From: Psammoneis japonica
Lineage: Eukaryota
Assembly (NCBI GenBank): GCA_008632985.1
Contig: QPGO01000053.1
Span: 186,001 to 250,000, forward strand
Reading direction: 5' to 3'
DNA: 64,000 nucleotides
A program made the translations under genes and the position numbers. Shown in pieces: positions 4,350 through 50,859 of this stretch. A model generated the notes under the pieces. It had not been told where the DNA came from. It did not search any database and worked only from the letters and a program-made list of their open reading frames with translations. Position 1 is the first letter of the stretch; every line of letters begins with the position of its first letter.

Positions 4350-5369
4350 TCAAGTAAATACAGGAAGAAGAACATTGTCAACCAGCTGACGGAACCAATG
4401 CGAGTCTGATGCTCCAATACGGTATGCAAAGCGATGAAGGAGCACTCCTGCGTGTGTCCCATGGTGACCAGCATCAAAAAGAGTACCCGACCTTTTGGCG
4501 TAGCTCGATGCGACAACCCCATCTACAACAAGGCGGCCGTTGGTCGTGTATGCACTGAATATCCCATGGTCCTGCAACTCTTCGATTGCATCAACTTTGC
4601 ACTGGTGAACCTCACCCTTCACAAAGTCTGTGACCCACAGAAGGTTTTCTTTTTCAATTTGACCTGCGGGAATGGCAACGGAGTCAGCAAAGGCAGTGTC
4701 GTGGGAGCTGCTAGTAAACAGGAAGTGGCTGTGGGTGGCTTTGATTGAGTACTTTGGTGAATGGTTTTCTGCTGAACAGGTGACATTGAGGAACGTGGCC
4801 AAGTGGTTGTTTGGAGTGTGAGGGAGATAAATCACGTCCGCTTCCGTCACCGTACCCCGCTCATCGACCGAAGCTACCTTGTCACCCACCTTCAGGTGCT
4901 CCACATGTTTGGCACTTCCATCAGAAAGCTGAACTCGCAAAGACGCATGAAAGCACTCTCCTTCTCTGCCAGCAGAATTACTTCCGCTACTTCCACTGCT
5001 GGTTGCGCTTCCACCGCCGACGCCCGAGGGGATTTTTGGCGCACAGCTGATTCCATCTGGGTGACATTTGAAGCTCGGACATTTCACAGGATCACAGGCT
5101 GCAATGCATTTACGACCAATGCAAACCTCTCCAGTCCCGCAACGACACGTCGTCGCAAGCGTTGGGGTCGACGCAAGTGCTGCCACTGCAAACTTCGTCT
5201 CCGGACCCACAGGCTGAGCCTGTGCCAGACGGCATGTGCCTCGAAGACCTTCTTGAAAGGCATCAGCAGCGATCTCATCAATGGAGGAGAGGGTCACCAG
5301 AAGGATGATGTGAACATTTGTGAAAGTGACCATGCTCGAAATCCGAGTTGACGAAAATGTGAGGGACAT
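4350..5369 (-). CDS. Secreted Cys-rich protein with C-terminal Hedgehog-type Hint (Hog) autoprocessing domain; likely start at 5333
   Basis: Hydrophobic N-terminus, Cys-rich segment and Gly/Ser linker. Then EGE|CFHASLRVQLSDGSAKHVEHLKVGDKV (block A), ATHSHFLF (block B), GIFSAYTTNGRLVVDGVVASSYA (Hint C-terminus) and an SRR-like tail. Confidence 0.85.
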   Translation of the reverse strand: MSLTFSSTRISSMVTFTNVHIILLVTLSSIDEIAADAFQEGLRGTCRLAQAQPVGPETKFAVAALASTPTLATTCRCGTGEVCIGRKCIAACDPVKCPSFKCHPDGISCAPKIPSGVGGGSATSSGSSGSNSAGREGECFHASLRVQLSDGSAKHVEHLKVGDKVASVDERGTVTEADVIYLPHTPNNHLATFLNVTCSAENHSPKYSIKATHSHFLFTSSSHDTAFADSVAIPAGQIEKENLLWVTDFVKGEVHQCKVDAIEELQDHGIFSAYTTNGRLVVDGVVASSYAKRSGTLFDAGHHGTHAGVLLHRFAYRIGASDSHWFRQLVDNVLLPVFT

Positions 5370-6913
5370 GCTTGCCTTTGGATTTCATGTCTGTGCATCT
5401 GCTGGTCGTGGACAGTGGATACGAGCACGCAGATTCTACGCGAAACACAGTGCAAGTTCATCGGCAGTCAGGGGCCCTAGAGAGTGGAGAGCAGAGCTCA
5501 CGTGTGAATGCTTGATGGGTGATTCTCGGATGTGAGAACCTGAGATCAAAGATCATTCGATGCATGCACTCGGGATTGGCACATTTAATCATGGTGCACG
5601 TGCGTGGGTCGAACTTGTTGCTGAGGTCACGAAGACAAAATCGTTTTGTCACTGACCAGCCACCTGCAAGGTCCAGCTTGACAAGACTTGACACCTCACA
5701 GCAAAACAGTGACAACACCTGGAAAGGCTCGGCTGACATCCCCAGTGCTTCAACTGACTGCACATGCTGCACTGTGTCAAAGGCAGGGGGCACTTGTGCT
5801 GGGTGACTGTTCTGCTCAATCTTTCCCACCTCTGTGGCAGACGGGTTCCAGTCCTGGGTGGGACTCCGCGCGACATTGGGCCCGCAGAATTCTGCGTGCG
5901 AGCTCCGCAGCAAATTTGTCCTGCAATGAAAACGTGCATGATCGCCAACAGAAAAAGATGCCATTTTGCGAACGTGTCTCCTCGTCCTTCATGCTTGGAG
6001 CACATCATTGACAGTTTGCCCGGGTGTGTTCTGCAGATGTTGAAGAACACACCCAGTGCATTTTTGTTCTCATGAGTGTTGAAAATGGAAAGCCTTTGGC
6101 TTCGCAAAACAGGGAGCATGAAACAATTTTGTAGAATGCAGCACGCAGAAATGTGCGCGCGCAACATGTGACGCGATCCAAAAAACTGTTGATGTCACAG
6201 TGCAGCAGTGCAAGGTCCCACCCAGAGAGCTGGAACGCGTTGGCACAAAGATTCACATGCCATGAAAAACCAGGTTGCCAAGTTCAAATTCAAACTCGGG
6301 AAAAGGGAAGCCCAGACATTGTGGGAAGAAAGCTCCAGCCTCAGCATGGTGCCACCCAGCGGGTGTCAACCCATTTTGCCACATGCGGTGCATGCAGTGT
6401 TGGAGCAATGGCCCTGCTGGCATGGACTTGCGCCATCCTGGAAAGGTCCAGCTGCATGAGCTTCAATCTCAAATGGATTTGTGGCCTTGGCTTGAGCCTC
6501 TTGCCCAGCTTGACAAGCAAGCGGACATTGTTTCACATTTTGTCATCAAAAAATTTCATTGATGGGGAGAACTTGGGGCCATTGGCTTGAATGGCAGCCA
6601 GATCTGCTGTCACTGGGAGGTCAAAAGTTGCGCCTCATTCGAGCTTGCTTGGAGTGCCACCAGCGCACCTGACAACATTCCAACAAATCTTGAGCAAGAG
6701 CAGTGCAGCGCAGTGCAGTGCACAAAAAGAAGCAGCTGGCACAGCATCATCAACAGCTTCATTTTCCCACTGAACATTCTGAGGAAGACTGGCAACAACT
6801 GCAGCACACAAGATGTCAGCAGCTGCGTGGCACACACTTGTTGTTCAGAAATCATGCTGCTGGCCACAAGCTGCTCAAGCTTGGCTGTGCAGCATGTGCT
6901 TGAAAGTCTCAGT

Positions 6914-7220
6914 CAATGTTGAGGCTGCAAGTCAATGTTGCCAAAAAGAGCCCTGCTGAGCTTCCTGTGATGCTCAACACACTTGCCTTTGCAATCTGCA
7001 AGAATGGCTGTGAGTTGCCAAAGGTGTCAATGTGAGCTGCAAACTTGTGCAAAAACAGGCACCTTCTGATGCCAAACAACAAATCATGTGAGCAAAGTGA
7101 TCAGCTCTAAAGAGTGAGATGAAAAGCAAAAGCAAGGGGTCAATGACATCAGGATGTGCAAAGCATCTTTCCTTCAACATGTCTGGGTCCCTTTTCTGGC
7201 ACCCTGAATTTGGATGTCTC
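6914..7220. repeat. Degenerate LTR-like repeat, copy 1 (homologous to 14392-14730)
   Basis: Shared blocks aatgttgag..gcaagtcaatgt, cacacttgcctt, gttgccaaaggtgtcaatgt, aaagagtgagatgaaaa.caaaagcaagggg, tctttccttcaaca. Confidence 0.7.
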
Positions 7221-8829
7221 AACACACTCCTGCTGCTTGCACCAATGTTTTGGGGCTTGCAAAGCTTGGGTCAACAGTGCTGATGGATGGATCCTTCTGG
7301 AACAGCAACCAGCTGTTTCTGTTGCTTCAGCACTGAAATCTTCCAAGTCAGCAGAATGGCACAGATTGTTGTGCTGTTCCCCACTGGAGAAGCCAACCAC
7401 GTCATTGAAGAAAGAGTCTGCAGCTCTCCTCATGCCATCTGAAAAAATGCCCAATGCTGGCACAATGAGCCCCCTCTCTTTCAGGATTTTGTTGCACAAA
7501 CAGCCATCAAGCAGGTCCATGATCCAAATGTTGATCATCTTGGGAGTCAAGTCAAAAAACTCCATCCAGTGACAAGTCAACCCCAACAATGGGCTCAGCT
7601 CTCAACTGACATTGTGGTGGAAGAACAGTGCCGGCAACTTCACATCACAGATGACACCATTTCCATGCCGTGCAAGTGCACAGCAACTCCTCTCATCTTC
7701 AGAACAACTGGCATTGAGCTTCACAAGCACAAACCCCAAATCTGTCCACACCACAGGTGGGGCAACTGACCTCAACTTTTTGATCAACTTTTTGATGCCA
7801 TGTTTGTCCAGAGGGCTGGCCGCAACTCCTCATCCCTGTCTTGCTTGTTCAACCCAGCAATGCACTTTTCCTCAATGAACTTGTCACTCATGTTGCATTT
7901 GTCAAAATCATGACAAAATGTTTTGCCTTGCCTTGTGGCTTGACTTCCAACAATCCACCAATGTTCCTTGGTCTTTTGTGCATTCGAGCCATGTGACTCA
8001 AATTCAACTGATGCACCCCAATCATTGTGCAAGGAAAACGTTGGTGCAGTGGCGGACATGTGCTCAAAAATTCCTGTGCTCCACACATCTGTGCTCTTGA
8101 GCATGTTTGCCACATCATGCTGCACCTTCTCATTCATGGGGCACTCCATTTCAGTTGAAGGGATGGGATGTCTTGCCACAAGCAAACATGCAGTCCTCCC
8201 TCTCTTCCTTTGCATCAACCATCAACTGATGCAAATCCAAAACATCACAGTGGATGCCAGGGTTGTCACTGAATTGGCTCATTCCATTTTCAAGCCATCA
8301 AACCACCTTGGGGCTTGTTGCCTTTTGGAGTTCCACATCCTGGATTCCTTCCACAATTGTGCCCTTGTCCATGTGCAGCTGTTCTCCTCTTTTGTTGCAA
8401 GTCATTCCTGTGAAGACAGTCTCTTGCACTCTAAACTTGTGCCAGCAGCTCCATGGCCGCTGCTTTGCAGTCATGTTGCACAGTGCATTGAACTCATCAT
8501 TGAACTCATCTGCACTGTTGATCTCCTTGTTCATGGTCCATGGCTGTTCTGGAAGAACAAAACACTGATGGCGCAAATTGTGGCTGGTCAAACCTTGAAG
8601 TTCAGGGTGCTTTTCTGGGTCGCAGGGATCTTTCACCAACATGCATCAGAACTCTCATCCAGTGACATCACAAACCAGAAACATTCCTGTCATGCTTGTG
8701 GTCAACAGCCCACAGTGGCTCTCTTGGCGAACTTTCAAAACTTCCTGCCCTGCAATGGCTTGGTCATCAACAGTCTCCAAGTGTGTCATTGGTTGGACAG
8801 CACTTTGCTTTTAAGCTGCCCTTCTTGTT

Positions 8830-11360
8830 CTGATTGGCAACACAGGAATGGCATGTGTTGAGTGCTCTGGATCATTTCCCAGTGCTCCTGCACCCATTTG
8901 TTGTCTTGGTGAAGGACATTTTTTTGTCAATCAGATGCCCCTGGTGCTCCATGAACAACTTCATCCACAGAATCATGGTCATTGCAGCATCAACTCCTGT
9001 GAGTTCAGCCTCTGTGCCAGTCCATGTGTTGAGCTTTTGGCACTTTGACATGGCCTGCACTGCTCCATTGCCCACAGTGTGGCTCTTAAAATCAGGGTGC
9101 ACCACAAATGGTTCATCCATGCACACCAGCCACATTGTCACTCAGAGGTCCTTTGCACTCAGTGCAATGACTTTGTTTCATGTCTGGTTTGAACACTTGA
9201 CACAATGAACTGGTTTTCCCAAAAGCCCTTGTTGGCAGGCTCTCTGACTTGTGTGCACAATGCTGCAACAGTGGGGTGCACATCCATGTGGCCTCTCTTG
9301 GATGCAAACAGCCCCTTGGCCACTCACACATGGAATGTCTTTGCTTTGCTGGTTCGCAAATCTTGTGCCACCGGCATCAAACAAGTTCTCTCCAGCTGGC
9401 ACCATGGCAGTGTTCACACTCTTGATCTCTTCTGAGAACTGTTGCTCAATCATCTTGTTGTGAGCACAGTTGGTCATGTTGGCCTTTGCCTTGCCCTTTT
9501 GTGGCTTCTCAAGTCAAGGACATTCCCAAACAATCATGCTTTTCTTTCCTCATGTCGTGATGACTTCACCATGGCTTCCATGCATCTTGTCATGCCAGCT
9601 CAGGAATTCATCCTTTTGGGTTTGCACAGCTCAGCAGCGGGTCATCCACATGGAAATGTGTGGTGCGCTGCTTGCCGCTGACTGTTCAATTGGCAATGCA
9701 TGGATTGTGAAGGGCTGAACTTGAGCCCCATTTTCTCCAAGCTGTTGCAAAATTGCTTTCACTGCAGCAGAGCTGCAACCAACATGCCACGCACAGCTCT
9801 GACAACTTGGACATTGTGGAGAACTCTCTTCCCTTTTTCCATGACCGCATGTGGTCCACACAGGCTGGGATCAATGCTCGCTGGCATGTTGTGTCAACCA
9901 ACACTCCTGTGATCTTCATCATGTGATCCAGTTTTCACCCTCCTCAGGTTCCTGGGCCAATGTCTGGATGAATGCACAGCTCCAGATGCACTCCTGGGTG
10001 CACATCTTGTTTCTTGTGTTCTCTTTTTCTTTCACAGCATGCTCACATGTGACTCGCTCTCTTGAAATTCTTTGATGTGCTCAAAGAATCTTTGGCTTGG
10101 CACAAAAGCACACAACATGATGTCATTGACTCCAGCCACAATGACTTGTTTGCCAGTCTTCTTCCACTGTTGCTCAGTTGTCACATGTTGTGCAGCACTT
10201 GCTCTTCACATCCTTTTGACTGAGGATGTCCCCCCAATCCAGGCATGGTGCAGTCTTCATCCAGGGTGTCCACTCCTGCATTTGTGGATGGATTGATCTT
10301 GATCTGGGTTGGCCACATGTTGTGCACCAATCTCCACCTTGCTGCCATGCTGAGAGCAGAGCTGTTGTCAAAGAGATGATCTCATCCATCTTGATGCCCA
10401 AATTGGCTTGGCTTGTGCTTGTCTCTGGTCTTTCATTCACCAGCTGCAATCCATGCCATGCAGCACTCCAGCTCCAGCTGGAGTGGGTTGATTGGTCAGA
10501 TCTGGTGGTGTTGGCACTCACATTGTTGCTGTCCACTGACAAGCGGCGTGGCTGTCATTCCCAACTTGTGTCTGTGCATGACTCTGTCCCCAAATGTCCA
10601 TTTTGCTTCCGGTGCTCTTGAACCAATTGTCACATGCAATGTCTCTTTGATGCTTGCAGTCTGGGAACTTGTGATTCAGCTCACCACAACAGCAGCACAC
10701 TGGTGTGGTGTCATTCTGGTTGCTCTTCTGGGCATGGCTCTGGTCCTTCATGTTGTCTGGCCAATTGTCGCTGTGGTCATTTTTGCCATTGTTGGTCTCA
10801 TTGTTTTTTTTTTCATTGCTCTTTCTCTTGTGTCAATTGCAAGGGTCAATGTCTTTCAGATGGTTCAGCAGCACATCCATTGCCTTCTCTGGGGTTTTCA
10901 AATGGGTGTTTTCACCTGGACTGTGGTCTCTCATGAAGCTCTTCTTCAAGCTCTTGCAGCAACAATCATTGCCACTCTCCATGAACAGACACGTTGTGGT
11001 CCACATTTCAAATGCTGACTTCTTTGGCTTGTCTTGAAGTGCAGAGCTCCCATCTTGGCACTCCATGGCATTGGGGACAAATCTGTCCAGTGTTCTGGCT
11101 GTCTCCCAGTCTTTCATTTTGGCATCTTGCTGATTCTTGAATCTTTTGACAGAGGCAATCATTCAGCAACAACTTGCTCTCTTGTTGCCTTGCATCTGGA
11201 ATGTTCTTTGGGGCCTTGGCAAGAGCATGGAATGGATGCCAACCTTTCGTTGAGTCAGGTGCAAGGGATTGGATCAATTTCAGCAACTTGAGGCCGATCA
11301 CATCAGACACTTGATGACGCGCACATGTGGGCCTGAATTTGGCCACAATTCTCAAAACAA
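8830..11360 (-). mobile_element. Degenerate Ty1/copia (CoDi-like) retrotransposon: gag, zinc knuckle, RT and RNase H remnants
   Basis: RNase H-like FVVHPDFKSHT...GAVQAMSKCQKLNT..TEAELTGVD (8872-9141). RT-like MKITGVLVD and FHVDD (about 9640-9920). CX2CX4HX4C knuckle CCCCGELNHKFPDC (about 10660-10705). Gag-like DVIGL..LIQSL, VKRFKNQQD. Confidence 0.8.
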
Positions 11361-12109
11361 AAAGCTCGTCTTGTTGATGTTTTTGTGGAAAAAATCATTG
11401 TGTTGGATGAGCGATGTGTCATCTTGTCATTTGTTGTCAAAAGTGTTTTTGTGCACAACTTTCCCATTCATCATTGTCAACACAGATGGTGAACACAAGC
11501 AGAGCACATGTGACCATGCATGTGAGCATCTTTTGATGTCACCATCTGTTGTTGTGTCATTCTCTCTTTTGTGGTTGCACTCATTTGTTGCTTGTCTTGT
11601 CTTCTTCTGATTTCTGAAGCCGCCATTGTGGCATCATTCTTGGCTGCCTTTGACAGCAGTTCTGAGGCAGCCATTTTCCAGCTGTGTTGTTTGTTCCTGT
11701 CATGGTGACAACACCACAGTGAAGGCAACAAAGGACAGTGCAACACCCACAGTGCATTGCTGTGACTGTGGCAAAGCTCCCTGCATCATGCCCGCAACTT
11801 GTGATCAGCTTGTTTTGCTTGGAGAGGTTCTTGGAGAGAAAATGGGTCTCAGCAACAAGCAGATCCATTTCTCTCTCTGCCACAAGTCCATTTCTCTTCT
11901 TCATGGATGCCTTGGTTGTCATCAATGTGTCAAGCTGCCTGGCTGCATTTGTCATGAAATCCACAATCTGTGCCCCCAAACTGCTCGCAAGAGCTGCACA
12001 CAAGTCACAAGCCAATGGGCAGGATGCCAAGTGGCCGCTTGTGATGCAGCTCATTTTTTTAATTTAGCAGTGTCCAAAAAACCAACTCTCAACCAATCAC
12101 CACCCACTC

Positions 12110-12990
12110 CATTGATGTCTTTCCACCCTCATCAAATGTCAGATCAGGGCCTGGGATGAAATGTGTGATGGGCCACTGTGTTGAACTTGTTGATTGCCTT
12201 TCCCAGTTGGCAACACCTGTCACCACCAAGTGGTGCTGCCTTTTCTTGGGATGGAGCGTGCCATGCATTTGTCATCTCATCATCGCAGCGAGACATGCAT
12301 TGGGGTGCCCAACCACAAGTGTTCATCATCTCCATCTTGGCACATTTTTTTCTCCCTTTGCCAGCTTTGATGCACAAATTTTCCTTCAAAAGAAATGTGC
12401 TTTGTGCCCTCCTCTGTCAACTGGAGCAAGCAATGTCTTCAGCAGGATGCCTGAGAACCAACACATTTCTGCTGCCAAGATGCACTGCCACTTGATGCCA
12501 TGGTGGATCTTGTTGGCACCAAGTGCAGGTTCAACCATCTTGTCATGGAAATCATTGGAATTGTCAGCCAAATGAATGACATGTTCGTGATTTAGCCCAC
12601 CACCACAATGCTGAAAAATTTGAGTGGTTCATTGAATTCCTTTGCCACACAAGGATGCAGACCCAATGGTCTGTCTCAAAGCTTTTGCACGGCTGTGAAT
12701 CACGGTCCATGGCGGCGCTGGCTGCTGCAGGCCAAACCTTTCATTTCAAAGAATTGATGCATTTGTCACAATTGTCATCTCCAACATCATCTTCAACATT
12801 GGACTCTGTGTCTGGTTCAGAAGAACAGTTGAGATGACATTCTTCCAGATCTCTGTTGTTTGCTCGCCATTCAAATGCATCATTGGTTTCATCAAGGTCT
12901 TTTCCATTGTTGTCTGAATCTGATTCAATGTCATCATTGTCATTGGAGCATGTGACACAACAAATTGCACCTGTGTTTGGGGTCAAGCCA
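12110..12990 (-). mobile_element. piggyBac-like transposase remnant
   Basis: AEMCWFSGILLK..LAPVDRGGHKAHF, then DRCCQLGKAINKFN, then FIPGPDLTFDEGG (12123-12160). This resembles the first catalytic-Asp region of DDE_Tnp_1_7 transposases, preceded by an acidic N-terminal tract. Confidence 0.65.
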
Positions 12991-13899
12991 GTTGTTGCTG
13001 GAGTGCTTCCACTCAGACAATTGAACAATTGGTGCATGGCATTTGATCAGAATGAGGCACTTGAGACACCACTGTTTGCAGTGGTGATCGCAAATGCGTG
13101 CGCTGATCACAAATGGTTGAACCCAGAGTGGCAAGATTGTTTGCATTGGCTGCATTGTTTTTCCAAGGGGTGTGCTCGGCCATGGGGGGGGTGGTGCCAG
13201 CATGTGCTTGCACTGCAGCGCGCACATCATCACCACTGCCACCGGCGGCAGCCTTGTGTTTCTGGGTGCAACTTTGCAGCCAACTTTTCATCTGCTTGTT
13301 GTTTGGAAACAGCCCACATGTGTGATCAGGGTCAACTGGAGCTCCTTCCAAATCAAACCATTTGATCTTGAAAAACAGCTGTTCAATTTTTGAGGTCACT
13401 CTGTTGCTGCCCATCAACTTCCATGCTGGCAATGCTTTCCTCGGCAGAATGCGTTCAGCGTTGAGGGTGGGTGTGCTTCATGTCAGAAACAATCAACTTT
13501 TGTTTGGCAAAGCTGAGTTGCACTCAAGCTCTCTTGGCCACTGGTGGCTCCACAGGATGACTTGGAGGGGGTTCATGCATGGGAACAGATGGTGCTTTGG
13601 TGGCAGCCAACTGCGACACCTGATTTGTTTGCGGCATGTCTTGAACAGGCAAAAAAGACATGTCTGTTCCCGCTGCAAGCAATTCTGACACATCAAGCAT
13701 TTCCCTTGCAATGTTGTCAGGCATCCAAGGTTGTTGGAGTGAACATCCTTCCCCGGTGGGGGGTGGTCTTTGGGTCCGCCATGTGGAGGGTGGAGGGAGA
13801 AAATGGCAAAAAAATTGCCAAAATGCTGGCACAACCAGCAGGTCATTTTTGACATCTGAAGTGTTGATTCCTGTGTTTTTGGGTGTGAAGATTTCATCT

Positions 13900-14350
13900 G
13901 TGGGGTCCATTCATTGACTGTCTTTGGCAACTGAGATTTTGAAAAAAATTGCAGCCCGTGGTGTGTGGTGTGTGTGCTGCAAACAGGCAACTGATGTGGC
14001 TGGCATTGATTGGATCATCCCGGATGTTGGGACAACTGGGATTGGCTTGCACTCTCTTTTTAATTTGCTTGGTGCAGCAGTCATCTAAAATCTTGGCAAA
14101 AGCAGCTGTCTTGCTCTCTTTGAACTGCTTCACTTTCTTGTGGCAGTTGCTTGGCTCTTCTCTTGAGACATCTTTGAATGCAGCATTGCAAGTGTTTCTC
14201 AGTGTTGGTCTTCTTCTTTGGGTTGGAGAACCTGCGACTCTTGTCACCTCTGCTGCAACCTTGAATTTGGCCTCAGCCACTTGTCCCTTCACCTTCTCAG
14301 CCACTCATTGTGCAGGCATTCAGCACTCCATTGTCTTGGTGTGTGTCAGT
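13900..14350 (-). mobile_element. Second copia-like gag remnant
   Basis: KESKTAAFAKILDDCCTKQIKKRVQANPSCPNIRDDPI resembles diatom copia gag (..AYA.I...YC...K.R.E.HP.Y..I.DDP). Confidence 0.5.
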
Positions 14351-14391
14351 GTTTGCAAGCACTGAGTGCAGTGCCAGCAACTCTTTGGAGT

Positions 14392-14730
14392 GAATGTTGA
14401 GCTGGCAAGTCAATGTCACACCAAAAGGGAATGCCGCCAGACTTCCTGCGACACTCAGCACACTTGCCTTGGCACTCTGCAATGGCTGTGGGTTGCCAAA
14501 GGTGTCAATGTAAACTGTGAACTTGCACAACAAAGGTGCCCACTGACACCAAATGACAAATTGCACAAACCAAATGATTCGCTCCAAAGAGTGAGATGAA
14601 AAAACAAAAGCAAGGGGCAGATGACAGCAAGACTCTCCTCACACAGAATCACTCAGTGGGCCACATCAGGACACAAAGTGTCTTTCCTTCAACACATCCA
14701 GGTGCCTTGTGATGTCCTGAATCCAGATGC
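14392..14730. repeat. Degenerate LTR-like repeat, copy 2, abutting the 3' side of the gypsy remnant
   Basis: Aligns by eye to 6914-7220. Confidence 0.7.
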
Positions 14731-14799
14731 TCCACCAGCCAATGAACTCACTGTCATTTTTGTGAGAATGCAGCATTTTGGCCTGGGACATCAAGACAG

Positions 14800-16810
14800 C
14801 CAAAGATTGCAAAACTTGCTTGTCATGTGTTGAGAAGTTTTTTGTCAGGAGTGCAAACAAGTTCTGTCAAACCAGCAACAGCATCAACACAAGTGAGTGC
14901 TTTGAACTCAATCTCACATCCCTCTTGTGCCACAGTGTGATCCATTCTCCCATCAAATCTTCTGCTGATGCTTCAGTCCAAGGCAACAAGGGAGTTTCGT
15001 GCTTTGGCAACTCACCACAGACAGGTCTGAGCTGCTCAAAACACTGACAAGCATCAGAGAGACAAATTTGTTTCACAACCAGTGCAACACACAGGATGCC
15101 AGAGAGTGCTCATCCTCAAGCTCATCTTTCACCAATTCCAAAGTGCCCAACTTCACAAAATCAACAAGCTTGACTCAGCACTTTTGCCACTCAGTCTCCC
15201 AAACTCTCCCCTTGGAAGGCAGATCCATGTGCAGGAGTTGAGAAAAACAACCAGTGACCACATTGTCCTTGCCTTTGACAAGATGAAGTGTGAGTTGTGG
15301 AGACAAATCTTCAAAGAGCAGGCCCCACCTGAGAATGCATCAAGAATTGAGCATGCAGAAGGCAAGACTTTTCATGACCTGCATGGACAGCAATGCCAGC
15401 ACTGAGTGGCATGGTGCAAAACTCCTTCTTGAGGCATGCTGCAACATCAAGCAATTCTTGTTTCCATGGATTTGCTTTCAAGCTGATCTCCTGCAGGTGA
15501 CACAACACTTTGTCGAGATGAGCTGGGGGGAATCAAAGTCAACATCAAAAGCACCCACATCATCAACGTGCAACTTGACATCCAAGTCATGCACAATCTT
15601 TGCAATTGCCAGCTGAGCAGTGTTGGGAGCTGTCTTTCAGCTCACAGCCATTTGACAAATGCTGGAGCTTTTCAGGTTGCATGACAATTGCACGGTCAAT
15701 TCCTTGCTCTTGTTTCCCAACTCAAGGTGACAACAGAACATGGTGAGGTGAATTTTGGTGATGAGTTGGCTGCCAGCATGACATTGCAACACATTTTGAA
15801 TTGCTCGCAAGGGGCTGACCTTTGACTTTGACACTTTGTTGAGCTCACAACAAAAGTTTGATGCCCAGTGCACTTGACTGCCCTTTGGGATGACACAAAG
15901 GTGCCTGCTGCCCACTCAGTGGGTCCACAAGGTTGCTGTGCTCCAGCATCAACTGGGTGTTTCAGCTTCATTTTGAGCACTGCTTGTGTTGGTTGACTTG
16001 TTGTGGAGCTGCTCACAGCCTGGAACAACAGGGTGGGGCATCTTCCTTGGCTTTCAGATGGACCTTTTTATGACAGCAGATTCCCGGTGTGCTGTCTGAC
16101 AGCAGAGTGTCATGTTTTTCCAGCACTGGTCAAGGCAATCAAGGCTCTTGAATGTCTCAGCTGTGTGTTGGTTGGCTCTCATGTGCTTGGCATCCAAGCT
16201 GCTGCAGCCAGTGCATGGGCATCTTCATGCTCATGCTCATCCTCAAAAATTGTCATCTGGTTCATCAAATTGACCCAGCACAATGCACCACTTGCAGGAC
16301 TTGGCTCAATGGCTTGCCTCTTTCATTGGTGCAAAACCTTGTGACTGGCCAGCAAATGGCCCTGTTGTCAAGAAGTTGATTCTCAATCTGATCTTGCTGG
16401 GGAAATTGTGCCCCCCAGAATCACATGACATGCACAAGTTGCATCAAAGACATGAGCTGGCACACTGCTCTGACAGAGCCATGTGGTCACTGAGCATTGC
16501 CTGTCATCCTGACTGGGGCACTCACGCTGCTTTTTGGAGGAAACGAGTTTTTCCTTCTTTGCCAATGGATGGCAAAGTTCCCTTTGGCAGGGGACCATCT
16601 CTGGAGGCAATTGAGGGGTGTGACTGACCAGAATCAAGGCACAGTGCAAAATCTTTGAAAGCTCTTGTTGCTGGATCAACCATGCCACAAATTGTGCAGA
16701 GGCCGGGTGGTTAAAACCACAGAGCTGCTGGGCACTTGAGAGGCTGTCTTGGGAAGAGAGGGGTGCCAAAATCAGGTGCATTTTGGTTGGAAATGTCCTT
16801 CTCATCATTC
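14800..16810 (-). mobile_element. Degenerate Ty3/gypsy retrotransposon (protease, RT and integrase remnants)
   Basis: Protease-like VFDATCACHVILG. RT PTEWAAGTF/IPK..VHWASNFCCELNKVSKSKVSPL..IQNVL...TKIHLTMFCCHLEL, and LHVDDVGAF (about 15550-15575). Integrase-like CQCFEQLRPVCGELP..ETPLLPWTE...DLMGEW. Domain order PR-RT-IN is gypsy. Confidence 0.8.
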
Positions 16811-17672
16811 GCGCAATCTGCTGAAGCCAATGTGTTCAAACCAAACTCAGCTGGTCAGCAATGGTTTCACAGTGCAAATTTTTCCAAATGTCGCTCGACC
16901 ATGGGTGCATGCAGCACAAGCAACAGTTCAGTGCAAGACTCAACTCCATGTGACAACTGGAAACACAGTCCTTTGCACACCTCTCTCCTTCACCAACACC
17001 AGGAGGTTTCATCTGATTGGTGGGTGAAAATGATCCACATCACTGCGAGAAGTTTCTCAAGCCTGGTTGTTGTGTCTGCTTTTGCATCGCCACATTTCAC
17101 CTGCTCCTGGAAGCTTGCTGCTGGCGGTGACTGCAGCTCACATCTTGAGCTTGACGGGGTTGATCATTGCACTGTCATGCTGGCCACTGCCTTGGTTGCT
17201 GCCACGACCACCATTGCCGTGATCATGATCGGATCCTCCGCAGCTGGGACCCCAATTCCCAGAACTTCAGCTTGCAACTGCAGATGGCATGGATTTTGGA
17301 AACTAGAGTTCCGTTCCGGTTCCGCTTTCTGTGAACACGTCCCCGCGTCTCGTGCATGCACGTGGAAGGAAGCAAGAAGGGCAGACCTCCCGCAAATTCC
17401 AGCTGTTTCAATTTTGCGACAGACACGCGCGCAAAGACAATCTGAAACGCTCTCCGGGTTTCTTACAACAATTTTTCCCAGATGCGTACGTAGCTTCTAC
17501 GCTGACGTGCCGTACTTGCTCATTCGCATCCACTGGAAGTTGAAGTCAGCAATCAGCCCTCATCAAACATCCAAACCATTCGACTTTGGTTCGCATTGAG
17601 CTCCACATCAGTGGTTAGTTGGAGGAAATAGCATACTTTTGTCCTCCTTCCTTAGCTAGGAACCTCCTCTAG

Positions 17673-25788: not shown

Positions 25789-25820
<32 letters not shown>

Positions 25821-38895: not shown

Positions 38896-40825
38896 TCAGA
38901 AAGCTTCACCAGAGAGTTGCGCTTCGAAGATTTCAAGTACAGCGCCAATCATCGCGATCATGTTGATAGAGACGAGAGAGCCGAGGTCGAGATCGCGATG
39001 AGCGACGATGATGTGCGTCGCGGGGGCGCGCTCGGCGGCGCGCCTGCGATGTTCAACAGCATCAGCTTCTAACCAATGAACTGCTGTTCTGGGTTGTGAT
39101 GTGAGAGAGCCAAGGTTGCAGCAACCAGATGCAGGGCAGCGGCAGCAAATGAGCCAAGGCAGCAGACTCTGCCTGCCACCAGCTGGACATCCCCCATGCA
39201 AGAAAAGTTTCCAGCAGGGTGGCCACATGTTCACCAGCAGTGCACAACGAGAGAAGAGCCACAGGCCATCACACCACACATGTGTTGACTGTCACCTTTT
39301 CTTGTGTCAGCACATGGGCTGAGTGCTGTGTGGCAGTGTGCATGATCCACAGGAGGGTAGCAATTTTGGGACTGGTTTCACTTGGTCAGGAGACAGATCT
39401 TGTTTCTTGCAGGAATGGGTGGATTTGGCAGGCAATCGTGGTGTGTCCAGTGTTTGGCGGGGGAGCTTCCAAAAAAGTCATCCATCAAGATGGCACGCAT
39501 GCTGGGGGTGAAGTGCAGGGCAAAGTGACAGCAAGTGACCTGAGTTCTTCCAGCAGCTTTTGACATTGGCCACAGAACATTTGCACAGCATGTGGACATC
39601 AGAGTGCACGAAATGTTAAAAATGTGCAGATTCGCATGATGATGATTTGTTAAAATGTTGCAAAATGTTGTTGTCACATGATGACAGGCCAACCTCTGGT
39701 TGCAAGTTTGGTGCACCAACATTGCAGTGACTTGTTGAGAATCATGTTTGCTGTTTTTCACCATGTCCACATCACCATTTCTGCCTCCACCTTGTTGCCA
39801 TGTGCCAATGCGTGATTGCATTGTGCCACACAAACCTTGGTTTGCCAATTTTCGCAAACATTGTTTTAAACGAGAAAAACATTTCATTGGTCAAGTCAAT
39901 TCCTTGTTGCATCTGCAGTGCAATGACTGAGTGCCGTGTCAACTGTGCGCACATTTTCTTGCTGCAACTCTCTTAAACCAAGCCAACAATCATCATCGGA
40001 CTCGTCTTCATTGGACTCGTCTTCATGATTCGTCTCCTCCGTCGTTTGTTTTTCCTTTTGTGCCTTCCTCCTGCTCATCATTGTTGCCATTGTCGTCCCT
40101 GCTGCTCTCCACCATTGGGCTGTTCATTGCCTTCACCTTCTCCGTGTCACTGGCCGGTGCTGTCTTCTTCTTCTTTTTTGCTTCTCTTCGGACTTCTCGC
40201 ACTCGCTTTTCTTGATCTCCGCGTGCCACTTTTCAAACTCCTTGCCCTCCTTGGAGTCTCTGTCTTTTGTCACCTCTGTGTGTGAATCGTTGAACCGAAT
40301 GATTCCGTTGTCTCCCTAAGACTCTCGTTGTTTCTTTGGCTTCATGCACCGAGGGGCAGGCCTTGTTTCTTCGAGCTCCATTTCCTCACCCAATTCTTCC
40401 ACCGCCTCCTCCTTGTTCCTGCATGCCCACACCTGCCAACAATTCTCCACAGCTGACAGTGCCAAAGCTTCGTCACCTGCCACAAACAACTGTGAGACCT
40501 GTGCGTTCCCAGTTTTGACGGCGCGACTCCATGCCTGCTTTTGCTTGGTTTGAGGTGGGATGTGATCACAGAACCACTTGCATGCCTGCTTGTTCCTTCA
40601 TTTGCTGCCGGTGACAGTGTCCAGGCCAAACGGATCCCATGTCGGCACAAACAGGGTGTCATTCTCTTCATTCTTGTCACGGCTTGACTTTTTCCTGTTT
40701 TGCTTTTTCCTCCTGACTGCCGCCTTGAGTTTCTTTTCTTTTTCCTTTCCCTCTTCCTTGGTGACAATGCCTGCACAGACAAAGCATCACCGTCATCTTC
40801 TTGTGAGATGCGCACAACTCTCGAA

Positions 40826-41194
40826 TCACACACATTGGTCACTTGACTTGCGGGCCATTGCCTCCGCCTTTCTGCGATTGCCAATTTGCCTTTTTGCCGC
40901 CTTTTTTGCCCATTCCTCCCAAGTTCCTGACCAATTTGAAGTGTCCATGTTGCCACCAGCAATCTGTTTCTTGACAAACATTGAGACGCTCCCATTGCTT
41001 GCCAATTCTGACGGACTGAGAAACTTCACCTGTGGAAAGAGATCATTTCTGGCCACCTTCTCCACTTCTGATTTCAATGCACCATGCGCTGCCTGCGCAC
41101 CTGTTCTCTTCAACACTGCCTGAAGTCTCAGGCTCATTGGCCCAATGGTCTCATTTTTCTTTCTCTTCTTTGCCGGTGGTGCTGGAGACGACAT
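40826..41194 (-). pseudogene. Hypermutated hypothetical gene (NLS-like PAKKRKK; VARNDLFPQVKFL motif)
   Basis: Protein-like ORF with no Tyr. A possible decayed donor GCAAGT (from GTAAGT) lies near 40851. Confidence 0.4.
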
Positions 41195-41899
41195 CTTGAT
41201 CTTTGCGCGGCAACAATCGAGAGCAGTGTTGCTGTTTGACAGTGCAACCGTCGTCTGGGTCGTGTTGAGACAGCCAGCCACTCCACTTTTCTCTGTGACA
41301 TTGCACAAATTGTTGTCAGCAACATTGAAATTTGAAAATGTGTTCACACATGACAATGAACAGTCCAACTTGCTTTTTGATGTGGCTGTCATTGCGTTTC
41401 AACGGAGACAATGTCCTTCATTTTGACAGCAAATAAAAAAGAACAACATTCACTGCAAATGCCAGATAAAAAATCAAAATGCAGACACGTCGTGCCTGTG
41501 AGAATCATCCAAATCTGCAAGACAATGTAATGTTTGCCATTTTCCCGCCATTTTTTGCGTGTTGTTCTTCTTTTCCCGTCTCATCCACAAGACAAGGACG
41601 ACGAGCATGAGTCTTGATGAAGGCCCTGTCAAGATTGACCAGAGAACTGTGAGGCAACGGCATCAGCACACAGACTTGGTCAGTCGCTGGCAGCTTGGCT
41701 TTCAACGCCTGAGAAGACTCAGTGCTCACCTGAGTCATGGGTTGTCCCTGTCGAAGCAATTGGGGACAATGTTTTGGTTTATGAACAATGTCCAGGAGCA
41801 GCAGAAGTGCAAGAAAAGGCCCCATTTGTTTGGGCTGCACAGGACAGAAGGAAGTGTTGGTCAGATTTGTTTCTAAAACAGGATGCGCGTGTCAATCTG

Positions 41900-42877
41900 T
41901 CATTCACTCACAGCAATTGCCTGACTCTTTCTTGCAAACATGATGAGTTTGATCCTTTCAGAATTGGCAAAGTCATTGCGGTGCACGTGAAGCAGTGCGG
42001 TGCGAGCACCTTCCGTTGCTTTTGTTCTGATGTCTTCTTCGGAAACTCCAAGATGAGCTTCTTCCTGATCGGAAGGCTTTCCCAACCACCGTTCTCGCTG
42101 TTCTTGGGTTGTGAGGTTGCTTGCAAAGAACACTTGGGTTGTGAGGTTGCTTGCAAAGAACACGCACATGTCGAACACAGCCGATAATTTCTTCCATTGT
42201 TTGACGACCTGGAAGAAGGTTGCAAGAGCAAAGGGAATCACTGTGTCCCCCCCTTCTTCGTTTTTGGAGAGCAAGGCCCAAAGATCAATTGGATTTTGGA
42301 AAAATTGAGTCGTCCCAAAACGACTGTTGCACCACTCTCCATCTGGCATCCAGCAGCAGTCCAACATGATTTGGTCGAACCCATGATTGTCGAAATCAAC
42401 AAGTTTCTCAAACTGCTGCTTGACTCTCTTGACAAAATCTCTTGCTTTCACATTGCAATTTAAGTGCAGATCAGGATGTCCATCTTGGAGAGAAACTGTT
42501 GGAACGACATTTGTGATTGTTTTGTCAGATTCCTCAAATGCCACTGCGCGGGCCTCGTCTCGCCTGTGTTGGTCGGACAACACCAAGGCCACCCCCTTCT
42601 CAGAGCACAATTCTTGAGAAGATAGTTGCCTTGCATTGAGCGGATGGGTCATCCCCAACCACAGCACATTGTGTGTTTCCCCGTCAGTTTCATCACTTGC
42701 GAAACAATCTCCTGAGTCGCTGTGGTCCTCTTCACCCTCGGAGCAATGTGCAACTTGGTTGTGCTCATCATCAACAGGCTCTTCGCTTTTGTCCTCTTCA
42801 CCCATGCAAGCAGTTGGAAGTTTGCTTGTTTTCTTGTCAATTGACTCCTCCTTGCAATCATTGTCACCTTTGTTCAT
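41900..42877 (-). pseudogene. Hypermutated gene, possibly Rossmann methyltransferase-like
   Basis: Acidic N-terminus, NVLWLGMTH, GFDQIMLDCCWMP, and an internal 30-bp tandem duplication (42103-42162). No Tyr. Confidence 0.4.
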
Positions 42878-43013
42878 TGCGAATGACAACAAATCACCGG
42901 CAGCCTTCTTCCTGTTAGAACGAGAAATCAATGTGATGATGTCAGCACAATCAGACAAAAAACAAATGTGATTGCCATGAAAAAGCAACCTCTCTTTGCC
43001 GTTCCAGTTCGGC

Positions 43014-46000
43014 TCAAACTTTGTCAATCGACACGAGTGGGACTGGCTCCCATTCATGCCTTCCAAACCGCTTGATCATTGATTGCCCATCAGAGAACAA
43101 GAGCAACAGATGCTGTCCGCAACAAAAGACATCGCAGATTCCCATCTTTTCACGAGCTGCACTCAGGTCACATGGCAAAGACTCTGGGCCATTCTTTCCA
43201 CAGTCTTCCAAATCAAAATCACCCTCTGTCCGTTCCAAGAGTAAATCACACTCCTCCACTGGGACCTTCATTTCCTCCATTTGCTTTGCCGCTCCCAACT
43301 TGGCCACCGGATGGACAAGATTACGAAGGTCAGGGTGAGGATGGATCCCTGTGCCACACAGCATCAATGTCTGCACAGAGTTCATGCATCTGAACTCTCC
43401 ACAATCAGCACCTGCATGATCCCATGTTTGGACCACGGTTTGAAACACATCCTCAATCACCTTGTGGTCAAACGTTGGCTTGCCAACATTGTCGTTGATC
43501 CAGTCGATGACAACAACCAGTCCGCCAACAAGCAAATCCATCAAACCGTTGAGTTTCGTCCTGCACTCTGCCACATGAACCTCCTCGAAATTGAGTCCCG
43601 GGCTCTGCATGCGTCGGTTGTTTCGATCCCCCGCAATGCTGCCGAACAGCCTCGCAGCTTCTCTGAAGTGATGAAGGACACGATCGCCAGCCACGAAAGG
43701 ATGCTTCACAGCATCTGTGTTGCACAACAAGCAGTGAAAACGGGAGAATCCGGTTTGACACCCAGCCACAACGGCACAACAAAAGCAATCATGTGCACCA
43801 ACCTCATCGAGGTTGTCAATGATTGCCGAACAACCGCGCAAGAAATTAAAGTCCTTCATGATGGCAAACGGAAGACATTTCCTCGGCATGACAATGACGG
43901 GATGCTCAACTGTGTCGGACGGAAGATTTGGCTTGCCAATTTCCTCTTCCACCCACACAGAGTGAGGGTCAAGGAAAAAATCTTTGATGTTTCTGTGGGT
44001 TGGCTTGCCCGACGGAGGACAACAAGGGCCGCGGCATCTCATCATTTCTGCAGCATGTGACAGATCAAGTTTTGCGAAATGACCATGCACACACAATTGG
44101 AACTCGGCATGCCCATGTGCCGAACTGACACAGTTTCCAGCATTGCCTTTGGATGCAGTGACAACCTTCAACGACCAAGAGCGACCAACAGTGTCTCGCA
44201 GTGATGAGCAAAGAGCACCAGTCTTGGTGCACCCATCCATGTCACAATCCTCTTTGTTGGTGTGCAGCTCAGTTTTCGAATTGACGGATTTTTTGCCGGA
44301 CGACGAGATGCACTTAACTTGAATTTCCATGCCTTCCCTTCTAATGTGCTTGGCTCCAACCATCTTACGGAGCTCAGCCGCGAAAAGACTGTCACGGTGC
44401 GGGTCATGGAAGGAACGCATTTCTTTCAATGCAACAAGATTAATTTTGTCCTCGCAGAGTTGCGTGGCATCCAAGATTGAGGCCATCATTGCCTGCACAT
44501 CCTTTGGAAGCTTCTCCCACTTGTCCCTGCCAAAGATGGCACCAGGCTTGTGAGCAGGTCCCACTTCAGCTAACTCACCGTCTGCAACTTCGTAATTCTG
44601 GCCACAACAACCAAAACAGATCCGACAGCGCAACTTGCATTCTGGTCCATCCCTTTTTTCGTTCGGCTCGCCATGTTCCAACACTGCACGGAGCATCGAC
44701 GACACACTGAATCGCAACCCAAAAAAGCATTTCTGATGCATCTTGTCCGTGTGTTGCAAACAAGTGACCACGTCGTGAGAGGTTGACTGGGTCGGGCAAG
44801 TGATCGCAACCATCGATTCTTGCGTCGGATCATTGGGAGCTGTGCCATTTTCAAATCCATGCACAAACTTGCAGAGGTGATTTGCCAAGTGGAAATCGGA
44901 GATGCTGTGGAATGGCTGGTGCTTGACACAGAATGGGGGTTTCCTCAAAGACGACAAGGCAAGAATGTTGTGACTTCACCTCACCCGGAATCGCAAACGG
45001 AGATGGTTCAGGAAACACTTTCACAAGCTCTTCTTTTGTGAAATTGTCTGGCGGAGGAGGAGGCAACTGATGAGTCATGCCGAGGGTCGGCCACTTTGTT
45101 CGGGAACATTCAAATTGTTCCTTGAGAGTCAGCACATCTTGGAGAATCAGCGATTTGTTCTGAGAAACATCAGAAGGTTCACCATCTTTGGGGTTTTTGA
45201 GACTGGGGCTTGAGGAGCAAAGGGAGGCGGCCAAAGAGGTGGCAAGAAGAATGGAAGAATTGGAGATGAGAAGAGGAGGACAAACAATCAATCAAACAAT
45301 GTGATGGATTCATGCCATTGGGATTTTTTCGTTTCCGAGCATTTTTCGTAACGGGTGGAATTGCATTGCCGATTTCTTTCTTCTTGTGCTGAGTGGCAAA
45401 GTCACGAAGCCTGGCTTTCCACACAGCCTCAAAACGATCCCTTGCAGCCTTGCCTTTGCCGGAATCGTCAGCGGCAGAAACCACACAATCAATTTTCACA
45501 CATCTTAAAAGAGTCTCATCGACATGTGTTGCACACATTTGTTCTTGCTCGACATCGAGCATTGCCAGTCGCACAGGCTTTTCCCAAGAATGTTTGTGTT
45601 GGCGGAACAACGACTTTACGAATTCAGGGAAGGACATGGGGCATTCGTCTTTGGTCATCTCACAGTGACCAAGAGCCAGGAAATTCTCCAAAAAGTTGAT
45701 GCAAGTCGAGGTCTTGTCACATTCGCCGAACAGGGAGCACAGCCAACAACTGCAACCACCATTCCTTTCAGGTGCGCACGGTGGAATCTTGTCACGAAGA
45801 ATCAAAAAACCAATGTGAAGGCATTGCGCGTGACGCAAAACCTTCCCTTCAAAACTTCTCAGCTCAATGTGCTTGACAAGTGGCTCTCCCTTTGGGTCGC
45901 ACAATCCGGGATCATGGAGAAGCTTGTGCAACATGGAAATCTTTGCCATCACGTTGGTTGCAATGTCTGTTGATTTTGCCTTGTCGCCGACAACTTTCAC

Positions 46001-46411
46001 ATCCTCTGCTTTGGGAGCACGGCGACACTCCAACGCATGAGGATGTTTGGCGCCTTGACTGGAATGACTCCATCCTTTTGCGGAAAGAAAGTGCAGCAAG
46101 CTCTTGCACCCAAGTTCCTTTGCAACAATGCAGTTCACAGCCATTGGTTCTACAAAAAAATGAGGTCTGCCCTTTGACTTTTGCCACACATGGGCAAGTG
46201 CGATCCAATTCGGAGAGGGATCACAAGTGGAATTGCGGTGAAACTGAACCTTGGATTTCACCGTCTCGATTGTCGCTTTGACACGGCTCCGCTCGTTGCT
46301 GTCGATCACTCCAAAACCGTTGGCAAAGAGAGATTCAAATGTGGCCTCCTCGAGGTGGGAATCATTGTTGTCTTGCAACTGAGAGGCAACCGATGGGTCA
46401 CGCAGCGCCAT
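43014..46411 (-). pseudogene. Large hypermutated gene (over 1000 codons) broken by a decayed intron (45315-45231) and a probable frameshift near 44950
   Basis: ORFs 45179-46699, 44851-45291 and 43014-44957 are collinear and protein-like. Almost no Tyr, with excess Cys/His. Confidence 0.55.
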
Positions 46412-48912: not shown

Positions 48913-49571
48913 GGAATTGGCAATGGCCTTCCCACGCCATGCATGAATCCAAACGCTCCACCGAGACCTCCTGTGTTGCCTTGTCGTCAATCCGCAGTGT
49001 GAAATCCATGCTCCTTGATTTTTCCATCTGCGTTGAAATCCAAGTGATGAATTTGGGGTGGATGGATGATCTCTTTTCCTGTTGCCTCAGCACCCATGAA
49101 GGGTCCCTTGTGAATGCCCTTGACACGGTTCATGAACCACACATGATTGGTTTGAAGAGGATCAACTCGCAAGCCACAAAAGTTGGCTGAAATGTCAAAG
49201 GCCGACTCCAAATCAAAGTCACCAAGGGAATTGAGATGGGCATCTCGGGGAATGGGCCCAACAACTGCTGCACAGAATTCAAAATCATCGGCCAAACACT
49301 CCCCGCTGTCCTTGGCACCGAGACCGACGCTGGGACTTGGCACTTGTTTGGCGCGTTCCAGCAACTGCTCCGGGGGAATCGCAAAGTTAGAGGCTTGCAA
49401 GAGCTTTTCTTCATTGAGGAAGCTTTCGTCAAACATGGCGGTTTCTGTTGGTTCAATGGCGGCTTTGTCGGCGAACAAAGAAACCGTTGCAACACGATTG
49501 ACGGTGCTTGTTGCAGGAGCAAACGCCAAAGCATGGCCAGCAAGAGCAAGAGAAGTGAGATGAAGCTTCAT
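48913..49571 (-). pseudogene. Pseudogene of a host-type plastid-targeted protein of unknown function
   Basis: MKLHLTSLALAGHALA|FAP bipartite signal; LADDFEFCAAVVGP; GLRVDP. An in-frame TGA at 48989-48987 is followed by the continued motif RQGNTGGLGGAFG..HGVGRPLPIP. Confidence 0.7.
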
Positions 49572-49682
49572 GGTGCTGTCGTTTTGGCAGATGCATGCCA
49601 AGCACAGAGGACAGAAAATGCAGTTGCGTCGCTGCTGAGTCGTCTTCATTTGTTGTCGTCATCTCATCTTCAATCTGTCAAA

Positions 49683-49892
49683 TTGGGGGAAGTCTCCAGC
49701 CAGCTGCTGGCTGAAAAAAGTCTGCTCGTCAGTGCGTTTGGAGGTTTTGCAAGTGCAATTTTTACGCACACAAAATGAGACAAGTCTGACCAGTGTTCAC
49801 CAAAACCCCCTGATGCACAGATTGACAGACTCTTTCAGTGCAATTTCTACACAAAATTTTTCAGCCAGCAACTGGCTGGAGACTTCCCCCAA
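49683..49892. mobile_element. MITE-like element with 36-bp terminal inverted repeats
   Basis: ttgggggaagtctccagccagctgctggctgaaaaa (49683-49718) versus the reverse complement of 49857-49892: one mismatch. No clear TSD. Confidence 0.6.
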
Positions 49893-50859
49893 AATGCGAA
49901 ATGACAAGAGTGTTGGAACCGCACGAGGTGCGGACCCACTTCTGCCGGCAGTTGTTTGCATTGGCCCGGTGTGCCACACAATCTCCAACTCATTGTGTCA
50001 TGTCATCCTGGCAGCTTGACTCAGTGCCAAGCAATGGGCCCAACAATGGTGTCCCTGCTCACTTGCGCCAGCCAGCAAGAGGGCAGCACCAAAACCAGAG
50101 TCGGTCAAAAGGCAGAGAGTGGAGGAAGAAGGGGCCAAAACAGGTTCCAACAGGTGCCTGTCAGGATCTGTTGCGTGCTGCAGCGCCGCATGATGAAACA
50201 TCAGCAAACAAAAGAAGCAATTGCAAAAACTTCCAAGGCTGTTGCTGGCTGCACCGGGAACAATGGCAGTGGTGGTGCAAGAGACTCTTGGACCAAACCG
50301 CCCAACTTTGGACCAAAGCCAGTTGCAGAAGAACACCAGACAAAATGCCGCACCAACACAACTCAAAAGTTGGAGAGCAGCCTGCAAAGTTTTCCAGGAC
50401 CATGAGCAGTCCCACAGGAAAACCTCACAACTGGGTCTTTCCACTGATCCTTGGCCAGTGCACATGCCCCCCACCCCCTGCAAAATTGAGCGGAGGTGCG
50501 CACGAGATGAAGGCTGGGCAGAAAGCTGTCACAGAGAGTTGAGGCTCCACAGCAGATGTGGCTGAAGTCAGTTTGAGCTGATTTGCAGAGCTGTGTGATG
50601 CCACAGAAAAAATGCCATTGCTGATGCTGAGCTCACCCTGCTCACCTTTTGTCAATCTTGCCAAATGTCTGTTGCACGCTGGTCTGCACAGTTTGTTTCT
50701 TTGTGTCTCTGTGGGGGCTGCTGTTGCAGCTGCTCTTTTCAACTGACCCACACATTCACAATGACCTTTGTTGCTGCTGCACTCTTGTCATGGTCAAAAC
50801 TTGCAGGCAGGAGGTCAGAAGAGGTCATGGACAAGTTGGTCATGCCAAAGTGAGAGGAC

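Follow-up and report, generated by a model that had tools for sequence, protein, structure and literature searches.

In the diatom Psammoneis japonica, TpA dinucleotides have been almost completely erased, and CpG dinucleotides strongly depleted, across a block of nested transposon remnants. This block, here termed island 1, occupies positions 5480-17300 (11,821 bp) of a 64,000-nucleotide stretch of contig QPGO01000053.1 (positions 186,001 to 250,000; assembly GCA_008632985.1, 91.4 Mb), the whole of which is referred to as the window. The original prediction, made from the letters alone, had put the TpA content of island 1 at ∼15 by eye; 14 were counted, an observed/expected ratio (O/E) of 0.018, where 471 would be expected at the O/E of the gene flanks (Poisson P ∼1e-178). 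The 131 CpG correspond to an O/E of 0.19, and the claimed scarcity of CpG in the interior was evident in the core (6600-16400), which contains 11 TpA and 78 CpG (CpG O/E 0.14). The gene flanks gave TpA O/E values of 0.56-0.61 and CpG O/E values of 0.95-1.04; their 838 TpA per 21,001 bp (∼2.4 per 60 bp) agree with the few per 60-bp line reported earlier. The predicted convergence on TpG and CpA was also observed, with O/E values of 1.79 and 1.95, respectively, in 5480-17000. The GC content is 0.483 in island 1 and equally in the flanks, and the TpA/ApT ratio of island 1 is 0.020. A diatom host is indicated by the eIF-2B delta ORF: among its listed homologs, all those bearing a legible species name come from diatoms.

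The direction and timing of the change were established with a young Ty1/copia family, one full-length member of which lies in the window (Table 1). The coding part of this copy (53161-58946) has a TpA O/E of 0.15 and a CpG O/E of 0.90, in agreement with the earlier description of a younger copia at 53-59 kb that had lost most TpA and kept CpG. The sample comprised the window copy and 40 copies fetched from 121 that were scored (1138 candidates), selected by likeness to the window copy and long frames. Given that TA, TG and CA were all present, without CG, in 207 alignment columns of these 41 copies, TA is taken to be the starting state. The 257 TA-class sites carried TG 3941 times, TA 3592 times and CA 2763 times, a mean loss of 65% (24-87%). 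By comparison, the mean loss at 525 CG-class sites was 6.5% (3-19%), with 94% intact and symmetric products (TG 753, CA 577), and change at other positions was ∼1%. Expressed per A, A-to-G change was ∼0.67 at TA against 0.002 after A, C or G, an excess of ∼300-fold, and C-to-T change at CpG exceeded other C-to-T change ∼30-fold. The paired long terminal repeats (LTRs) of 39 elements (10,227 positions) showed 351 TA-type, 66 CpG-type and 31 other differences, such that the TpA and CpG processes account for ∼93% of the total (417/448). As such differences lie between LTRs of a single element, the changes arose after insertion. Outcomes at different sites were unlinked (r2 of 0.0375, compared with 0.0364 ± 0.0007 for shuffled data) and therefore arose separately in each copy.

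The possibility that this composition is native to the families, or is a sequencing or assembly artefact, attracted no supporting point and can be given almost no credence. The 207 three-state sites argue against it, as does the loss of conserved Tyr residues. In the window copy, 9 of the 16 Tyr conserved among 120 homologs are Cys or His, while nearly all other conserved residues are retained; every sampled copy keeps at most 26 of 37 Tyr-type sites, the Tyr preceding the VDD motif of reverse transcriptase (RT) being retained in 32/41. In the copia remnant of island 1, none of 43 aligned homolog Tyr is retained (10 Cys, 10 His, the remainder other). The starting TpA O/E of the young family itself was ∼0.67, and its metagenome relatives keep normal TpA: the best 79 of 542 confirmed relatives, which may be collapsed young copies and say nothing on lack of the process in other diatoms, had a median TpA O/E of 0.73 and a minimum of 0.41, and a 500-bp bin with TpA O/E <0.2 was present in 1/79, outside the matched element. 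Native composition, named at the outset as a finding that would overturn the prediction, was thus checked and did not do so. Short-read Logan contigs from run X1 showed 0 differences from the assembly over the 8 longest pieces listed, including 6198-8953, 10860-13502 and 14540-20000; as X1 may be the assembly's own sample, this identity speaks against an assembly artefact and is not a second isolate. Two further observations concern foreign sequences. One copia homolog from another source (P0087) has Cys at 5 of the 16 conserved Tyr columns, which may mean that a different organism has undergone this process. Second, outside the copia match, the tail of metagenome contig L202 (L202:9000-11237) has CpG O/E of 0.04-0.35 and TpA O/E of 0.19-0.36.

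The two losses proceed at very different rates. Hazards in the element body were 1.34 for TpA and 0.070 for CpG, a ratio of ∼19 (2.8-37.8 per copy), which substantiates the proposal of two clocks, a fast TpA eraser and a slower CpG decay. The proposed order could have failed in the same data and did not: TpA loss was ahead of CpG loss in 41/41 copies, and 500-bp bins with a CpG O/E <0.4 had a TpA O/E <0.2 in 29/29 cases in the window (128 bins in total) and in 204/207 at other loci (1214 in total). Bins with TpA <0.2 and CpG >0.8 numbered 10 in the window and 291 at other loci, the latter mostly from young copia copies and hence not independent. The copy-by-copy comparison that had been proposed revealed that TpA and CpG losses covary (rho 0.69). 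Furthermore, the first 600 bp (5' end) of young copia were spared TpA loss in 21/40 copies, and CpG loss was also reduced in this spared part (39/1254, compared with 4.9% in the body, p 0.0025). It follows from the covariation and the joint reduction that the two clocks share territory, and silenced chromatin probably aims both processes. In 3/79 foreign relatives, a CpG O/E of 0.23-0.24 was accompanied by a TpA O/E of 0.41-0.50, implying that CpG decay can run without the eraser. The 5' LTR and leader (first 600-900 bp) of the 40 young copia copies fell into two states, spared in 21 and eroded in 18, which resemble promoter protection lost with age. Sparing of gene-adjacent LTRs was considered and is unsupported overall (n 38; 5' flank versus 5' LTR, rho 0.17, p 0.32; 3', rho -0.17, p 0.31).

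The TpA process has a marked context preference in young copies. Sites followed by a pyrimidine (TAY) were converted twice as fast (1.33) as those followed by a purine (TAR; 0.62; p 2e-12); TAG was a slow context, TAAA gave 0.03 on 7 strand-sites, and TACG was not singled out (1.36 versus 0.97-1.46). Palindromic contexts yielded 647 TG and 576 CA, a strand-symmetric outcome, and no strand-coordinated tracts were detected beyond 2-3 bp; coordination at that short distance (z 3.3) coincides with overlap of the contexts. This preference predicts which TpA survive in old copies. TAAA/TTTA made up 13/14 survivors in island 1 (15% expected, p 2e-10), 95/161 in old relatives and 23/53 in island 2, against 119/1021 in the gene flanks. 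RTAY, the fastest class, made up 0/14, 2/161 and 0/53, respectively, against 307/1021 in genes. Singletons representing CA>TA and TG>TA were rare (0.0002-0.0004). A rough steady-state model built from the singleton rates of young copies predicted 72 CpG in the core of island 1, where 78 were seen; with TpA also accommodated once the slow TAAA context is taken in, island 1 fits the end state it had been proposed to represent. Among background singletons of young copia bodies, A-to-G (0.0021) exceeded C-to-T (0.0011), a bias that is perhaps off-target action of the TpA mutator.

Pfam scans of island 1, with stops read as X, found no transposon domain; given that Pfam is blind to this sequence, classes were assigned via better-kept relatives. 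The copia, gypsy and piggyBac remnants named by the original prediction were each identified in this way by similarity, and all are affected. A tblastn search of island 1 with homologs of the young copia gave no match, and by sequence comparison its copia remnant is of another clade; relatives of this remnant are ∼70% identical to it and eroded to the same degree. The piggyBac-like transposase segments matched a better-kept relative (L117; PF13843) with E values of 1e-15 and 2e-5, and the ends of the insertion were placed where matches to the copia family break off and restart. A miniature inverted-repeat transposable element (MITE), absent from the earlier list, has lost most TpA and retained most CpG at 5840-6240; over 20 copies of this family, 80% of TA-class and 32% of CG-class sites were lost. 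Two piggyBac copies differed by 54 TA-type, 34 CpG-type and 10 other substitutions. Together with the LTR pairs, the MITE and piggyBac copies uphold the claim that the effect is not class-specific and does not need reverse transcription. A second gypsy family (L125-L136), its loci chosen for intact RT domains, carries the change patchily, eroded sequence giving way abruptly to untouched sequence within single copies. Multi-copy C5 DNA-methyltransferase genes (L077-L079; C301, C297) are also TpA-erased (TpA O/E 0.07-0.10) and may either be carried by elements or derive from duplication of host genes.

At the left edge of island 1, the island-facing third (5051-5384) of a single-copy Hint-domain open reading frame (ORF) holds 1 TpA, where the level of the gene itself predicts ∼8 (p 0.003), with CpG retained. 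A paralog of this gene was sought and none was found, leaving nothing to polarise the TpA-poor edge; leakage of the mutator from the island into host coding sequence is a possible reading. In the gene block, a duplicate (32021-32255 and 35173-35405, 84% identical) has 11 and 12 TpA and no TpA erosion, indicating that two-copy repeat status alone is insufficient for erosion. Two RING-finger genes flank a low-complexity segment (25501-26000) containing repeats of CTAG, CTA and CT, which is the mirror image of the islands, being TpA-rich (O/E 1.30) and TpG/CpA-poor.

Table 1. Coordinates of features in the window (O/E, observed/expected ratio)
Feature	Position	Strand	Remarks
Single-copy Hint-domain host ORF, left edge of island 1	4350..5384	-	island-facing 334 bp: 1 TA
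Island 1, nested transposon remnants, TpA erased, CpG near steady state	5480..17300		dinucleotide counts, steady-state model
MITE, ∼400 bp, non-coding, terminal inverted repeats, high copy	5840..6240		TA 1, CG 23; very high word depth
Direct repeat copy 1 (with copy 2, probably an old LTR pair, judged by sequence)	6911..7154		75% identical to 14389-14632
Degraded Ty1/copia coding remnant	8773..11292	-	tblastn E down to 1e-41
piggyBac-like insertion nested in copia remnant	11291..14007	-	transposase similarity 12116-12601, 12744-13742
Direct repeat copy 2	14389..14632		75% identical to 6911-7154
Degraded Ty3/gypsy pol remnant (RT, RNase H, integrase)	14738..16277	-	E 2e-25 to relative L137
Island 2, intermediate stage	39001..52900		TA O/E 0.06, CG O/E 0.49 in 39500-52500
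Young full-length copia, 5-bp target duplication, early stage	52939..60044	-	TpA-class loss 73%, CpG-class loss 8%
3' LTR of young copia, eroded	52939..53213	-	2 TA
5' LTR of young copia, largely spared	59770..60044	-	15 TA

The spectrum of the change, its post-insertion timing, its independence between copies, its order, its context and its class independence are regarded as firmly established. The best explanation, and one we consider reasonably likely, is that a TpA-specific A:T-to-G:C mutator and deamination of 5-methylcytosine (5mC) act on the same silenced domains. In the fast clock, a host mutator would turn the A:T pair of TpA into G:C at single sites on either strand, working on chromosomal DNA after insertion of any transposon class, preferring TAC/TAT over TAG/TAA and nearly sparing TAAA; the Tyr-to-Cys/His replacements so produced would cripple element proteins. 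In the slow clock, methylated CpG would deaminate to TpG/CpA until balanced by the weak background A-to-G bias. Both processes would end in the same TG/CA products, with island 1 as the terminal state of both. A role for 5mC deamination in CpG loss is very probable. DNMT5a methylates CG in transposons of Phaeodactylum tricornutum, and diatom transposons are CG-methylated, according to the accessible text of PMC9998398. The P. japonica genome encodes a DNMT match followed by an SNF2 ORF (C76) that is DNMT5-like at the domain level, and also a gene (C34) combining a chromodomain and a DNMT domain, an arrangement reported for diatom DNMT4.

With respect to the TpA process, single-site, strand-symmetric and non-processive change with a strict requirement for a 5' T is more readily reconciled with a base-modifying enzyme than with patch synthesis by a polymerase. 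There is perhaps an even chance that a TadA/ADAT-type enzyme deaminates the adenine to hypoxanthine. An ADAT2-like gene (C26), a TadA-like gene (C38) and two A_deamin-domain genes are encoded, these labels being provisional readings of the matches; one A_deamin-domain gene lies on C40, and the second, L149 (C79:344171-345887), has no RNA-binding domain in the stretch fetched. Hypoxanthine is removed by AAG/MPG glycosylase, absence of which, if true, would help fix A-to-G changes; a profile search of the genome (PF02245) gave no match, with the control matching in 4/14 cases, and does not establish absence. Genome defence is, on balance, the favoured purpose.

Other mechanisms were weighed against this mutator. 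Enzymatic modification (e.g. oxidation) of the T of TpA in heterochromatin, such that it mispairs with G, would leave the targeting unchanged; because TA>TG reads as TA>CA on the opposite strand, every spectrum fits it equally well. It is nevertheless judged unlikely, as nothing points directly to a thymine-modifying enzyme; a search for TET/JBP gave no match, but neither did its controls, and is uninformative. The covariation of TpA and CpG losses, and the somewhat raised TpA conversion within 10 bp of lost CpG, would also be expected if T:G repair after 5mC deamination recruited a Pol eta-like error-prone polymerase that miscopied nearby TA. Pol eta affects AA as well as TA and leaves strand-coordinated clusters. 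Here, AA is unaffected (0.002), strand-coordinated tracts longer than 3 bp are absent, distance to CpG is without effect, and TpA products beside lost CpG showed no strand match (0.51-0.52). Patch mutagenesis of this type is largely refuted, and the coupled process is improbable.

The likelihood is comparably small for biased repair, in which a very-short-patch-like activity would convert T:G to C:G at TpA, driving TA to CA and so guarding methylated CpA, perhaps with a RID-related DNMT4. A gene of the diatom DNMT4 kind, with chromodomain and DNMT (PMC9998398, in its accessible text), is present, but such repair works only on mismatches already supplied, and an excess of 300-fold with 1% background change demands an active source, and the CA>TA and TG>TA singletons are scarce. 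ADAR-type editing of element RNA prior to reverse transcription can be set aside with near certainty. Its 5' U preference (5'UAG; PMC10661471, accessible text) and the two encoded A_deamin-domain genes are in its favour. By contrast, the LTRs of one element differ, both strands are equally affected, MITE and piggyBac copies are affected and TAG is slow; results from LTR pairs and DNA transposons refute RNA editing before reverse transcription. Were an ADAR-like enzyme to work on the DNA of RNA:DNA hybrids, this would fall under the preferred explanation.

Several points weigh against the combination of a TpA mutator and 5mC deamination on shared silenced domains. The search for a dedicated enzyme gave none: the deaminases look housekeeping, and the stretches of them that were fetched show no chromatin-targeting domain. 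An A lesion and a T lesion are indistinguishable by sequence. TpA loss is independent of how far away a CpG lies (rho 0.04), and 5mCpG is therefore no local guide. A small local link exists: the share of TpA converted was 82% within 10 bp of a lost CpG and 72% near a kept one, a difference exceeding the 3-4 points seen at longer range. Erosion in one gypsy family is patchy, with parts still at TpA O/E of 0.7-1.1, and untouched young copia copies may have been missed owing to selection of the sample. Finally, the simple steady-state model predicts 0.6 TpA in the core of island 1, where 11 were seen. This gap is attributed to the slow TAAA context, an explanation that rests on 7 strand-sites and a model outside which slippage in A/T runs lies.

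The closest precedent is Bigelowiella natans, in which TpA-to-TpG/CpA hypermutation of integrated nucleocytoplasmic large DNA virus (NCLDV) and virophage DNA has been described (Mettrop et al., 10.64898/2026.01.13.699255). As far as the main text of that preprint goes, the mutations arise de novo in two integrated viral regions, ∼1000-fold over background, in vegetative lines and in some lines only; transposase and RT domains are among the TpA-depleted coding sequences, and an ADAT2-like deaminase is proposed, without proof. The same main text (figures and supplements aside) lacks the words "diatom", "CpG" and "trinucleotide". On this reading of the preprint, both cases share conversion of TpA to TpG/CpA in chromosomal DNA, confined to foreign sequence: in P. 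japonica, A:T-to-G:C change occurs almost only at TpA and gives both products on the chromosome, genes are spared, and the change is confined to mobile DNA, the possible spill-over into the Hint ORF apart. The two differ in lineage (Stramenopiles and Rhizaria, respectively) and in extent, the diatom being near completion at O/E 0.02 compared with 0.45 in the B. natans NCLDV region, as given in the preprint text. Four transposon types, differences between LTRs, the order TAY > TAR >> TAAA and a second, CpG clock distinguish the diatom case. The signature is therefore the same as in B. natans, and what is new is the lineage, the transposon targets, the run to completion and the second clock, together with the rate ratio, ordering test, context rule and steady-state check. 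At P. tricornutum's mutation rate (4.77e-10; PMC6604790, accessible text), the background of 0.002 per site would, as a loose cross-species inference, be equivalent to ∼4 million generations, placing TpA change at ∼1.5e-7 per A per generation; this estimate from standing copies would be near the 7-9e-7 directly measured in B. natans (10.64898/2026.01.13.699255, main text).

Among other systems, repeat-induced point mutation (RIP) of ascomycetes is similar in being a post-insertion, class-independent and dinucleotide-specific mutation of repeats that may leak into adjoining genes. RIP creates TpA from CpA/TpG, and its polarity is thus opposite to that in the diatom, where TpA is lost, GC is not lowered and no processive strand tracts occur; C-to-T change at CpA/TpG, TpA gain and AT enrichment were not seen. 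Deamination of 5mC in DNMT5-methylated diatom transposons matches the CpG part of the pattern, including the symmetric CG-to-TG/CA excess and the encoded DNMT5-type enzyme, but cannot explain TpA loss. ADAR and TadA/ADAT2 resemble the TpA process in making A-to-G changes with a 5' T/U requirement; they differ in that their native substrates are RNA and that ADAR favours UAG, whereas in the diatom TAG is slow and TAC fast. A YAC preference of TadA-derived editors found no confirmation in the literature consulted. Mutation-accumulation lines of P. tricornutum show a GC-to-AT bias with CG, CC and TG as mutagenic contexts, TpA being unmentioned in the accessible text (PMC6604790). No report of TpA erasure in a diatom was found in the literature searched, most subscription journals lying outside its coverage.

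A mutation process described so far in one preprint is extended by these data to another, distant lineage and to every transposon class sampled. In such genomes, LTR-divergence dating and transposon annotation are badly distorted, and old remnants are missed by Pfam. The enzyme fingerprint (TAY > TAR >> TAAA, non-processive, strand-symmetric) can be used for testing candidate deaminases, and the hundreds of young copies in the genome provide a ready assay. It is tempting, if speculative, to suggest that diatoms and chlorarachniophytes share an ancient defence of the Stramenopiles-Alveolata-Rhizaria (SAR) group, in which a DNA adenine deaminase steered to silenced chromatin rewrites, across mobile DNA, all TpA that are accessible. 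If so, RIP and APOBEC would have an A-to-G counterpart, overlooked by routine scans because it leaves GC content unchanged, and its fast (TpA) and slow (CpG) clocks could serve for dating insertions. If real, a naturally occurring A-to-G mutator of DNA guided by chromatin would represent a new type of genome defence and be relevant to base editing.

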